In this document: one piece after another, positions 51,481 to 53,541 of the stretch | Position numbering within the stretch: the stretch's first letter is position 1 | Layout: each line of letters starts with the position of its first letter | Assembly: GCA_947364235.1 (NCBI GenBank) | Contig: CANARY010000003.1 | Span: forward strand, 184,868-248,867 | Direction: 5' to 3' | DNA from: an uncultured Candidatus Melainabacteria bacterium | Lineage (GTDB): Bacteria; Cyanobacteriota; Vampirovibrionia; Gastranaerophilales; Gastranaerophilaceae | Length of the DNA stretch: 64,000 nt | Program-made: the position numbers and the translations under genes | The notes under the pieces: generated by a model | What the model was told of the DNA's origin: nothing | The model's database searches: none | Seen by the model: the letters and a program-made list of their open reading frames with translations, nothing else

Positions 51481-53541
51481 ATGTATTCAAAATTTTTGTC
51501 GTTTGTACTTTCATTAGTGTTAATTTTTAATCTTGCGTTTCCTGCGATTGCAGAAGAAACTACAAAATATCCGGATTATGCAAGAATGTATGTAGGAGAG
51601 GATAAGCTTGAAGGGTTTAACAGGAAAATGTTTAATCTAAACAGCAAGCTGAACAAGTTTGTTGCGCGTCCTATTCATATTCTTTGGGCTTCTGTTATGC
51701 CTCAGTACGGAATGGATAGAATTCAAAGCGCTTATAATAATATTGAGTTCCCAAAGCGCCTTGCAAGCTGTATTATCCAAAAAGACGGGCAGGGAGTTAA
51801 AAATGAAACAATCCGATTTTTAACTAATTCCACAATTGGTTTGGGCGGGCTTTTTGACCCTGCTTCTAAGCTTTTGAAAGTTAAGCCGACAAACGAAAAT
51901 ATGGATCAGGCTTTGTGTAAATGTAAGGTGAAATCCGGTACTTATATGGTAATGCCGGTTTTAAACGCCTGCACTCCTCGTTCTCTGTGCGGAAGAGCAG
52001 TAGAAGCTGCGCTTGACCCTTCTGTTTACCTTGCAAGTCCACTAACTGCGCTTGTTAAGTTCGGGCTTATGGTTAACAGGACTTCTTATATGCAGCCGAT
52101 TGCTAAAATGCTTGAATCGACTTATGCAGATCCTTATGATATCCAGAAAAAACTTTTCGGAATTGAAAGTTATATAAAAAGTTCTAACTTGGACAGGCAG
52201 AATCTTTTGGAAACAGAAGCTAAGCTTGTTGATGAAGATTCTGCTATTATGGATGAAATAAACGCTCTTGTTGCCGGAGAAAGTTTTCTTGCTCTTGATG
52301 AACCGCCGGAAGAGCTTGGAATTCTTACAGGAGCTGCTGTTGGTATTGAAGATTTGCAAATCATAAAACATGAGCCGATTGAACCGGATATTGTTCTTGA
52401 AAATTATAACCCGCAGAGTCCGATTGTTGATTCTATGCGTACTGCGCTTTTTGATGACCCTGAAATTAATAAATCAATTTGGAATGAGCTTTCTATTTGG
52501 AATAGAAGCTTTGCAAAAAGAATTAAGACTTCGTCTGTTGCTGTAGTACCTGAACGCGCAGAGTATAAGTTTAGATATATTATGCAAAAAGATAAAAAAG
52601 CGCCTTTGATTATTTTGTATCCTTCGGTTGGTGAAGGTTATAATGCGCACCACAATACTGTTTTTGCAAAAATGTTTTATGACGAAGGCTTTTCTATTGT
52701 AATGCTTGGAAGCCATTTTCACTGGGAATTTGTGAAAAGTATGCCGGAAGGTTATTGTCCGGGGATACCTTCTGTTGATTCCGATAATATAAAACTCGTT
52801 ACCCGCAAGATTTTGGATAAGCTCCAGGATAAATATGAATGTGAGTTTGAAGAAAAATATGTAATTGGAACTTCGTTTGGAGCTTTGTCTTCTTTGTTTG
52901 TAGCGGAAAAAGAGAGCAAGAATAATAGTTTAGGCATAACTAAATTCATTGCGATAAGTCCGCCGGTGGAGCTTGTTTACGCGGTTGAACAGCTTGATAA
53001 AAATAGTGAAGAACTTGATAATAATTCACCGGAAGTGAAGCACAAAACAGCTGTGACTGCAGCAAAAATTTTACAGCTTACGAATTTGAAAGATACTGTT
53101 TCAGATTTTGCAATTACAGAACTTCCGTTTACTGAGCAGGAAGGAAAGCTTATTACGACTTTTCTTCTCCGCCAGAAGCTTTCGGATTTGATATTTACAA
53201 TAGAAAATGTTGCAAAATGCAAGAGAACAGATATTTATCAGACGATTAATAATACAAGCTACAAAGATTATGTAGAAAAATATTTGCTTAAAGGCGAGCC
53301 GATTGAAGGTTTAAGATATGCTTCAAGCTTATATTCGCTTTCTGATTACCTTGTAAACAATGATAACTATAAAATTTATCATTCTCCTGATGATTTTTTT
53401 GCAACAGAAGGACAAATATCCAGGCTTAAAACTTTTGCCGGCAAAAAACTTGTATGTTTAAGCAACGGTTCGCATCTCGGGTTCTTGTATAGAAAAGAGT
53501 TTCAGGATGCTTTGAAAATGGAAGTCGGCGGCAAAATATGA
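51481..53541 (+). CDS. MlaA/VacJ domain fused to an alpha/beta-hydrolase domain
   Basis: N-terminal EGFNRKMF, RFLTNSTIGLGGLFDPA, SGTYMVMP (MlaA); C-terminal GTSFG, HSPDD, NGSHLGF. Confidence 0.8.
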   Translation: MYSKFLSFVLSLVLIFNLAFPAIAEETTKYPDYARMYVGEDKLEGFNRKMFNLNSKLNKFVARPIHILWASVMPQYGMDRIQSAYNNIEFPKRLASCIIQKDGQGVKNETIRFLTNSTIGLGGLFDPASKLLKVKPTNENMDQALCKCKVKSGTYMVMPVLNACTPRSLCGRAVEAALDPSVYLASPLTALVKFGLMVNRTSYMQPIAKMLESTYADPYDIQKKLFGIESYIKSSNLDRQNLLETEAKLVDEDSAIMDEINALVAGESFLALDEPPEELGILTGAAVGIEDLQIIKHEPIEPDIVLENYNPQSPIVDSMRTALFDDPEINKSIWNELSIWNRSFAKRIKTSSVAVVPERAEYKFRYIMQKDKKAPLIILYPSVGEGYNAHHNTVFAKMFYDEGFSIVMLGSHFHWEFVKSMPEGYCPGIPSVDSDNIKLVTRKILDKLQDKYECEFEEKYVIGTSFGALSSLFVAEKESKNNSLGITKFIAISPPVELVYAVEQLDKNSEELDNNSPEVKHKTAVTAAKILQLTNLKDTVSDFAITELPFTEQEGKLITTFLLRQKLSDLIFTIENVAKCKRTDIYQTINNTSYKDYVEKYLLKGEPIEGLRYASSLYSLSDYLVNNDNYKIYHSPDDFFATEGQISRLKTFAGKKLVCLSNGSHLGFLYRKEFQDALKMEVGGKI

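Follow-up and report, generated by a model that had tools for sequence, protein, structure and literature searches.

A solitary gene of Candidatus Gastranaerophilales encodes an MlaA domain joined to an MlaY-like alpha/beta-hydrolase in a single chain

Organization of the locus

The window analysed here, a 64-kb stretch of DNA, comes from a gut-living member of Candidatus Gastranaerophilales (Melainabacteria), which agrees with the expectation in the initial annotation of a lineage distant from Proteobacteria. An open reading frame on the forward strand, starting with ATG, encodes a protein of 686 amino acids. The features of the gene and its flanks are as follows.

51467 to 51474, + strand: Shine-Dalgarno-like sequence AGGTGAGG, about 6 nt 5' of the ATG at 51481 (read from the sequence)
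51481 to 53541, + strand: open reading frame of the MlaA-hydrolase fusion, 686 amino acids
51481 to 51552, + strand: signal peptide of the signal-peptidase-I type, residues 1–24, ending in FPAIA and followed by EE (from the translation; helix 2–19 in the model)
51598 to 52158, + strand: MlaA/VacJ domain, residues 40–226 (Pfam PF04333; helical domain of about 33–245 in the model)
52201 to 52395, + strand: acidic, variable and disordered linker, residues 241–305 (from composition, pLDDT and gap-rich alignment columns)
52378 to 53538, + strand: MlaY-like alpha/beta-hydrolase domain, residues ~300–686 (from homology, Foldseek and strand-helix order)
52867 to 52881, + strand: nucleophile elbow GTSFG (G463-T-S465-F-G467), between strand 459–464 and helix 466–480
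53380 to 53394, + strand: HSPDD (H634-S-P-D637-D638), after strand 630–634, with D638 as the conserved acid
53464 to 53481, + strand: NGSHLG (N662-G-S-H665-L-G), after strand 657–660, with the predicted catalytic His665
53545 to 53578, both strands: bidirectional intrinsic-terminator hairpin 3' of the stop codon, common to the fusion gene and a convergent M16 peptidase gene

The terminator hairpin is GC-rich, with 15 pairs (11 of them G-C) and a T-run on the + strand, and 13 pairs on the - strand. The fusion gene is solitary, with no mla neighbours: among the ~50 open reading frames of the window no other mla gene was found, MlaC, MlaD and MlaE not being seen, and none lies beside the fusion homologues in the 20-kb neighbourhoods of two relatives. 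LptA and LptC are encoded in the same window, and an LPS outer membrane is therefore present, with an asymmetry to maintain.

Signal peptide, linker and overall model

The signal peptide ends at a cleavage site read by eye as A-I-A/E-E, and the first Cys of the protein is residue 97. The fusion protein thus lacks the lipobox Cys that marks lipoproteins of the MlaA/VacJ family, and a lipobox-like motif is found in none of its 120 closest homologues. In this it differs from E. coli MlaA, Pseudomonas alcaligenes MlaZ and the fusions of Lentisphaeria. The missing lipid anchor raises a small question of how the protein is targeted to and retained at the outer membrane. Fusions of this kind are labelled in databases only as 'MlaA/VacJ family lipoprotein', and the lipidation part of this label is wrong for the clade of the window protein.

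The linker contains 17 D/E against 2 K/R residues, is predicted to be disordered (pLDDT below 50 at residues 246–256 and 262–297) and aligns poorly across the family, with many gaps. The AlphaFold2 model of the two-domain protein is nonetheless confident, with a pTM of 0.82, and that of a homologue from Victivallis vadensis DSM 14823, which has a similar two-domain arrangement, reaches 0.88. Judged from these models, both values appear to exceed what would be expected of independently placed domains, and they fit the published picture of an MlaA domain sitting on top of its hydrolase.

The N-terminal domain belongs to the MlaA family

The match to Pfam PF04333 is strong (E 1.1e-39; 136.6 bits versus a cut-off of 25) and spans profile positions 2–188 of 195. 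Solved MlaA chains are matched by sequence (5nuo_D, E 2.2e-12), and a Foldseek comparison of the AlphaFold2 model with MlaA chain 5nur_B gave a target-normalised TM-score of 0.83 with 2.9 Å rmsd over 199 columns. Residues D41, E44, N47 and R48 are invariant across the family alignments. Together with the fold, the D-x-x-E-x-F-N-R motif is common to the window protein and canonical MlaA (VacJ), as seen in the OmpC/F-MlaA complexes of E. coli and Klebsiella (PDB codes: 5NUP and 8I8R). The domain is not, however, an orthologue of canonical MlaA by the NCBIfam equivalog model NF011672, against which it scores 72 bits versus a cut-off of 375. In pairwise comparisons the MlaA domain scores about as high against two MlaZ-type proteins (~52 bits) as against enterobacterial MlaA (~50 bits), and so favours neither affiliation. 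The initial annotation had described an N-terminal MlaA/VacJ domain, an acidic linker and a signal peptide without a lipobox Cys, and all three of these features stand.

The C-terminal domain is an alpha/beta-hydrolase with a conserved triad

The AlphaFold2 model was compared with the PDB using Foldseek, which returned more than 700 matches at E ≤0.001; those listed are, MlaA chains aside, nearly all esterases, lipases or other hydrolases. Many esterases and lipases were matched at a probability of 1.0. The best target-normalised TM-score to any hydrolase is 0.63, and no solved lipase is close. According to the secondary structure of the model, a helical cap typical of lipases is inserted at residues ~498–626. 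Pfam hydrolase models gave no match to the fusion protein at E ≤1, and among distant relatives Abhydrolase_6 is matched with 27.6 bits versus a cut-off of 26.3. The hydrolase domain has no Pfam model of its own.

In the predicted model the Ser, Asp and His residues follow strands in the order that is canonical for the alpha/beta-hydrolase fold, Asp coming behind the next-to-last core strand and His behind the last. Among 120 family representatives, Ser465 is conserved in 117, Asp638 in 115 and His665 in 116, and the triad is also near-invariant in a 42-sequence alignment that reaches down to 21% identity. The second Asp of HSPDD is assigned as the triad acid because it is retained in 115 of the 120 representatives, as against only 83 for Asp637; the latter, which is replaced by N in 31 of these sequences, was discarded as a candidate. 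The GTSFG, HSPDD and NGSHLG motifs singled out in the initial annotation as a candidate Ser-Asp-His triad can thus be assigned to Ser465, Asp638 and His665.

Relationship to Pseudomonas MlaY

Hydrolases of 430 amino acids from Pseudomonas and Stutzerimonas are distantly homologous to the C-terminal domain. BLASTP against a protein from P. alcaligenes (P0375), termed MlaY-type here by its genus, gene order and triad spacing, gave 89 bits and an E-value of 9e-24 with 22% identity over 345 amino acids, and alignment of the window hydrolase with the Pseudomonas-type proteins by hhalign gave a probability of 99.1% (E 7.6e-19, 296 columns). S465, D638 and H665 are matched by S185, D386 and H413 in the Pseudomonas proteins. 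These hydrolases, that of P. alcaligenes among them, have their genes directly upstream of an MlaA-family gene. In the Pseudomonas proteins the spacing is 201 residues from Ser to Asp and 27 from Asp to His, identical to that of published MlaY (S187, D388 and H415). The Asp-to-His spacing of the window hydrolase is the same, 27, whereas its Ser-to-Asp spacing is 173, and its cap is therefore shorter than that of MlaY.

The link to MlaY is made through orthologues, synteny and triad spacing, with the sequence of PA3238 itself outside the comparison. The P. aeruginosa protein was not among the many Pseudomonas orthologues matched with a Paraperlucidibaca hydrolase as query, and a query labelled 'P. 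knackmussii' matched only Stutzerimonas-type proteins, PA3238 not being recovered. In a FastTree phylogeny the MlaY proteins of Pseudomonadales form a clade with support of 1.0, and a wider clade (support 0.993) still excludes the window hydrolase, whose own clade (support 1.0) consists of MlaA-first fusions only. Going by this tree, the window hydrolase belongs to a different subclade from Pseudomonas MlaY and is not its orthologue in the narrow sense. The proposal that the hydrolase is MlaY-like is supported by the alignments, which also speak against the contrary possibility raised with it, that the C-terminal domain is unrelated to MlaY. Orthologues of MlaY in Pseudomonas are widely mislabelled as 'serine/threonine protein kinase'.

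Distribution of the family and coupling to MlaA

With the hydrolase domain alone as query, 683 relatives were retrieved, and the family comprises hundreds of clusters from Melainabacteria, Lentisphaerota, Verrucomicrobiota and Myxococcota. Genetic coupling to MlaA is near-obligate: of the 35 loci that a stand-alone hydrolase query (a four-sequence alignment) detected, a sample skewed to Lentisphaeria, 34 have an MlaA gene fused or adjacent. These comprise 25 MlaA-hydrolase fusions, five loci with mlaA followed by the hydrolase gene and four with the hydrolase gene followed by mlaA; the single exception has no MlaA gene within 4 kb of the hydrolase. Relatives of 540–660 amino acids with an N-terminal hydrolase were entertained as fusions of the opposite order and set aside, as Pfam finds no MlaA domain in their C-terminal extension.

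The combination of the two domains is not new in kind. MlaA-MlaY fusions were reported in 2023 by Guest, Lee, Wang and Silhavy (PNAS; PMC10374164), and this precedent, with the hundreds of family clusters, bears out the suspicion in the initial annotation that fusions might already be present in databases. The published example, A0A3A4W9L3 from an unclassified Desulfobacteraceae, resembles the window protein in that MlaA and an MlaY-like alpha/beta-hydrolase share one chain, and its model has been described with MlaA on top of the hydrolase (PMC10374164). Compared by published coordinates, the domain order is reversed: the hydrolase occupies residues 107–454 and MlaA residues 529–741 in A0A3A4W9L3 (PMC10374164), versus MlaA at 40–226 and the hydrolase at ~300–686 in the window. 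The fusions of Lentisphaeria/Victivallales, Verrucomicrobiota and Myxococcales have MlaA first, as in the window, and are 21–27% identical to the window protein; the alignment of these MlaA-first fusions with it contains 29 invariant columns across 42 sequences. The Lentisphaeria fusions examined differ in having mostly a lipobox-like Cys (LTGC, LLAAC) and linkers that are short and non-acidic. What is particular to the window protein is a domain order the reverse of that in the published example, the lack of a lipid anchor, which extends to all 120 homologues, and a solitary gene. A literature search found no paper mentioning MlaA together with Melainabacteria.

Proposed function and alternative readings

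A genetically characterized counterpart is the P. aeruginosa pair of MlaZ (PA3239) and MlaY (PA3238), of which MlaY has been interpreted as a phospholipase from its genetic characterization (PMC10374164). Like the window fusion, this pair combines an MlaA-family module with a homologous alpha/beta-hydrolase carrying Ser-Asp-His, in tight genetic coupling. In Pseudomonadales, however, the two modules are separate polypeptides with the hydrolase gene first, and both are described as lipoproteins, whereas the window encodes a single polypeptide with MlaA first and no lipobox. We consider it probable that the gene is a one-chain equivalent of the MlaZ-MlaY pair in which extraction and hydrolysis of lipids are coupled. 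The protein would be exported by the Sec pathway and reside, non-lipidated, in the outer membrane, with the N-terminal MlaA-type domain seated in the inner leaflet and forming a channel through which phospholipids mislocalised to the outer leaflet could leave it. The C-terminal hydrolase, presumably held against MlaA on the periplasmic side, would receive the extracted lipids and cleave their acyl esters with the predicted Ser465-Asp638-His665 triad. The protein would in this way maintain lipid asymmetry by breaking lipids down and not by returning them through retrograde transport. Canonical MlaA, by comparison, is a lipoprotein of 250 amino acids that hands lipid to MlaC and MlaFEDB, whereas the window protein has an enzyme domain of its own. 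A functional analogue would be PldA (OMPLA), the outer-membrane phospholipase A, which likewise destroys mislocalised outer-leaflet phospholipids; PldA, however, has an unrelated beta-barrel fold, is activated by dimerisation and works within the outer leaflet.

Acyltransferases also use a Ser-Asp-His alpha/beta fold, and sequence alone cannot separate hydrolysis from transfer; one Foldseek match (E ~3e-6) is 2vat, a deacetylcephalosporin C acetyltransferase. The C-terminal domain could accordingly be an acyltransferase or transacylase that moves an acyl chain to an envelope acceptor (lipid, LPS or protein), in which case the outcome would be remodelling and not degradation. We regard this as unlikely, given that the fold matches are mostly esterases and lipases, that MlaY, the genetically characterized relative, has been read as a phospholipase (PMC10374164) and that no acceptor-related gene is kept beside the fusion, either in the window or in the neighbourhoods of the two relatives. 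A hydrolase whose substrate is not the outer-leaflet phospholipid but, for example, another periplasmic ester, lysolipids or acyl groups derived from lipoproteins, with MlaA serving mainly as an anchor, would agree with the distance to any solved lipase (the best hydrolase TM-score being the 0.63 given above), and without a lipid anchor the embedded MlaA domain could be the sole attachment to the membrane. The coupling of hydrolase to MlaA at 34 of the 35 loci, in several phyla and three arrangements, argues instead for a functional partnership and not a mere anchor, and the invariance of the MlaA core residues points the same way; such a role is quite improbable.

The lack of MlaC, MlaD and MlaE genes in the window would also suit a non-catalytic C-terminal domain that acts as a built-in substitute for MlaC and passes lipid to an inner-membrane transporter, and the cap domain of the predicted model could make a lipid pocket. 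A triad and GxSxG elbow that are near-invariant throughout the family would be unexpected in a mere binder, however, and His415 of P. aeruginosa MlaY is required genetically for asymmetry (PMC10374164), so that this reading strikes us as very remote.

A broader extension of the coupled extraction and hydrolysis proposed above is that the non-lipidated MlaA-first fusion is the sole asymmetry device in Gastranaerophilales, replacing MlaC/MlaFEDB and PldA. It may also represent an old lineage of hydrolase-coupled MlaA proteins, separate in origin from the Pseudomonas-type pair with mlaY followed by mlaZ, whose members reach the outer membrane without lipoprotein sorting. This scenario is speculative and we hold it to be doubtful. 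The degradative MlaYZ route has so far been known from P. aeruginosa genetics, and the coupled reading of the window protein would extend it to gut-living, non-photosynthetic relatives of cyanobacteria. Single-chain proteins with MlaA first are common, occurring in hundreds of clusters, and show strong conservation; the one-gene version would offer a handy object for biochemical and structural work on the transfer of lipid from MlaA to an enzyme.

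Gene, signal peptide and MlaA-family domain

The fusion protein is encoded by one long open reading frame, downstream of dprA, topA and a short ORF.

51023-51340, + strand: 105-aa ORF between topA and the fusion gene
5' of the fusion ORF ATG, + strand: ribosome-binding site AGGTGAGG, read from the sequence
51481-53541, + strand: fusion ORF, ATG start, 686 aa
53545-53578, both strands: GC-rich 15-bp hairpin scoring as a terminator, beginning four bases past the fusion ORF stop
53587-56184, convergent to the fusion gene: M16 peptidase gene

With its own ribosome-binding site, these neighbours and a bidirectional 3' terminator common to it and the M16 peptidase gene, the fusion gene looks monocistronic. 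The 105-aa ORF, for which a Pfam search returned no match, is a possible gene; visual inspection suggests that its two halves (…INKPIAQLIGVNPNE… and …LPLPILELLDINPEE…) resemble each other.

Residues 40-226 match the MlaA family (PF04333, E 1.1e-39), and a sequence search relates them at about 1e-12 to MlaA chains in solved OmpC/F-MlaA structures. Because the protein scores 72 bits where the NCBIfam MlaA equivalog requires 375, its N-terminal half is assigned by sequence to the MlaA family but not to the canonical MlaA orthologues. Residues 1-24 read as a classical signal peptide ending A-I-A/E-E (cleavage site taken from the sequence), and the earliest cysteine is residue 97. The initial annotation rightly saw that a lipobox is missing, and this is true of the whole clade: no lipobox-like motif occurs in the 120 closest homologues, which are 62-100% identical. 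It was also correct about an acidic linker, residues 241-305 containing 17 Asp/Glu versus 2 Lys/Arg; this segment aligns poorly among homologues and has pLDDT <50 in the AlphaFold2 model.

A 62%-identical cluster is named 'MlaA family lipoprotein [Candidatus Gastranaerophilales bacterium]' at NCBI, Gastranaerophilales being an order within Candidatus Melainabacteria. One member of the Gastranaerophilales-type cluster of P0118, MCM1073437.1, is labelled '[Bacteroides sp.]' and is probably a mis-binned MAG contig.

The C-terminal hydrolase domain and predicted structure

No Pfam or NCBIfam model matches the C-terminal half. A HMMER search with residues 301-686 alone against 1.8 billion cluster representatives returned 683 relatives, of which 384 had E <= 1e-10. 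When both domains were mapped on the best 150 of the 683 with HMMs from the close family, many proved to be 600-770-aa proteins with MlaA preceding the hydrolase, at identities down to about 25%; others were stand-alone hydrolases of 410-450 aa, and some carried an unrelated C-terminal extension, which Pfam ruled out as an MlaA domain. A few distant relatives give weak matches to Abhydrolase_6 or Abhydrolase_1.

The three motifs proposed earlier as a candidate Ser-Asp-His triad are present at 52867-52881, 53380-53394 and 53464-53481. Conservation was counted in 120 full-length members: 117 retain G463-x-S465-x-G467, 116 retain His665 and 115 retain Asp638. Since these positions are near-invariant, whereas the adjacent candidate acid Asp637 is Asn in 31/120, the alignment identifies Ser465-Asp638-His665 as the triad.

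The fusion protein was modelled by AlphaFold2 from a 42-sequence alignment (21-100% identity), with mean pLDDT 83.7 and pTM 0.82. In the model Ser465 is flanked by strand 459-464 and helix 466-480, Asp638 and His665 follow strands 630-634 and 657-660, and about 130 helical residues (498-626) separate the sixth core strand from the seventh as a cap. This arrangement of the predicted C-terminal domain is canonical for alpha/beta-hydrolases, and its lid resembles that of lipases. In a Foldseek search of the PDB, the N-terminal domain hit MlaA (5nur_B; target-normalised TM 0.83, rmsd 2.9 Å), and the C-terminal domain hit numerous esterases and lipases with probability 1.0. The latter include 4i3f, lysosomal acid lipase (6v7n), brefeldin A esterase (1jkm) and monoglyceride lipase (6eic); no close relative is among those named. 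A separate model of the Victivallis vadensis homologue reached pLDDT 89.6 and pTM 0.88. The pTM values of the two models, despite the loose linker, suggest that the MlaA and hydrolase domains share a defined interface, in agreement with the published fusion model, in which MlaA sits atop the hydrolase.

Relation to MlaY and to published fusions

According to Guest et al. 2023 (PMC10374164), MlaY (PA3238) is a lipoprotein of the alpha/beta-hydrolase fold with triad S187/D388/H415, and fusions to MlaY homologues occur in some MlaA-family proteins. Comparison with MlaY was made through genus-level Pseudomonas orthologues of PA3238. The Paraperlucidibaca hydrolase shares >50% identity with many Pseudomonas proteins of 430-432 aa, whose triad, S185/D386/H413, has the spacings of published MlaY (201 and 27). 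The P. alcaligenes hydrolase gene overlaps a downstream 255-aa PF04333 gene by 8 nt, and its product and the window hydrolase domain share 22% identity in an alignment of 345 residues (89 bits, E 9e-24) that pairs Ser, Asp and His of the two triads. Profile-profile comparison of the two families gave 99.1% probability (E 7.6e-19). A FastTree phylogeny of the hydrolase domains places only MlaA-first fusions in the Gastranaerophilales-type clade (support 1.0). This clade joins Lentisphaeria fusions with weak support (0.58-0.66) and falls outside a 0.993-supported clade with the Pseudomonadales MlaY proteins. The proposed kinship with MlaY thus holds at the level of family homology but not of narrow orthology, as judged with the orthologues standing in for PA3238.

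These 430-432-aa MlaY-type hydrolases of Pseudomonas and Stutzerimonas (loci L034 and L036; proteins P0375, P0383, P0401, P0438 and others) lie directly 5' of an MlaA-family gene and are widely labelled 'serine/threonine protein kinase' or 'PrkA' in NCBI and UniRef. The label looks like a propagated misannotation, because they have no kinase-domain match and possess the alpha/beta-hydrolase triad.

Gene arrangements across genomes

One genome per prokaryotic species was scanned with an alignment of stand-alone relatives, and arrangements at the 35 loci found were called with domain HMMs on six-frame ORFs.

Arrangement of MlaA and hydrolase domains at 35 loci
MlaA-hydrolase fusion: 25/35; Victivallales/Lentisphaeria, Verrucomicrobiota, Myxococcales
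Two genes, mlaA then hydrolase: 5/35; Victivallales-type MAGs, one Bdellovibrionales MAG
Two genes, hydrolase then mlaA (mlaY-mlaZ order): 4/35; Paraperlucidibaca, Perlucidibaca
Hydrolase with no MlaA gene within 4 kb: 1/35; MAG labelled delta proteobacterium

The two domains are tightly coupled genetically. Both two-gene orders exist, mlaA first (L001-L004, L023) and, in Pseudomonadales, hydrolase first (L030-L032, L034, L036). At the mlaA-first loci of the Victivallales-type and Bdellovibrionales MAGs the hydrolase begins with a signal-peptide-like segment of its own (e.g. P0146). In the published example A0A3A4W9L3 the hydrolase (107-454) precedes MlaA (529-741; PMC10374164), whereas the window protein has MlaA first; the two fusion orders may descend from the two operon orders.

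Proposed function

With the domain identities, homology, triad conservation and tight genetic coupling observed here, we infer a location, substrate, chemistry and hand-over as follows. Most likely the protein would leave the cytoplasm by the Sec route and lose its signal peptide to signal peptidase I, its MlaA domain would insert in the outer membrane's inner leaflet and channel outer-leaflet phospholipids to the joined hydrolase, and the latter would deacylate them through Ser465-Asp638-His665. That the same fold acts instead as an acyltransferase seems unlikely; that it hydrolyses a different substrate, MlaA serving only as an anchor, is somewhat less likely still, and a non-catalytic lipid holder is very unlikely.

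A protein of this kind is already known, as the initial annotation anticipated: MlaYZ and MlaA-MlaY fusions were both published in 2023 (PMC10374164). Particular here are the domain order, reversed relative to the single published example, the absence of a lipid anchor throughout the clade together with a long acidic linker, and the Melainabacteria host; a literature search found no paper on MlaA in Melainabacteria.

Other features of the window

34077-35641, - strand: adjacent LptA-like (PF03968) and LptC-like (PF06835) genes, by Pfam
36933-38921, - strand: 662-aa protein with an N-terminal TPS secretion domain (PF05860, E 5.5e-11)
777-4485, + strand: two large ORFs in succession, of 561 and 673 aa, neither matching Pfam at E <= 1e-5
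26412-27296, + strand: weak Pfam match (28.3 bits) to MTP18, mitochondrial 18-kDa protein

The encoded LptA and LptC point to a host cell with an LPS outer membrane and an LPS transport bridge. No MlaC, MlaD, MlaE or MlaF was found among roughly 50 window ORFs scanned, and mla genes are absent from the neighbourhoods of two relatives, which are unrelated to that of the window. On the contig of a 62%-identical relative (L038, 16563-20237), a 1224-aa AsmA/YhdP-like protein is encoded ~6 kb downstream of the fusion gene, probably by coincidence. The 662-aa protein may be a two-partner-secretion exoprotein.
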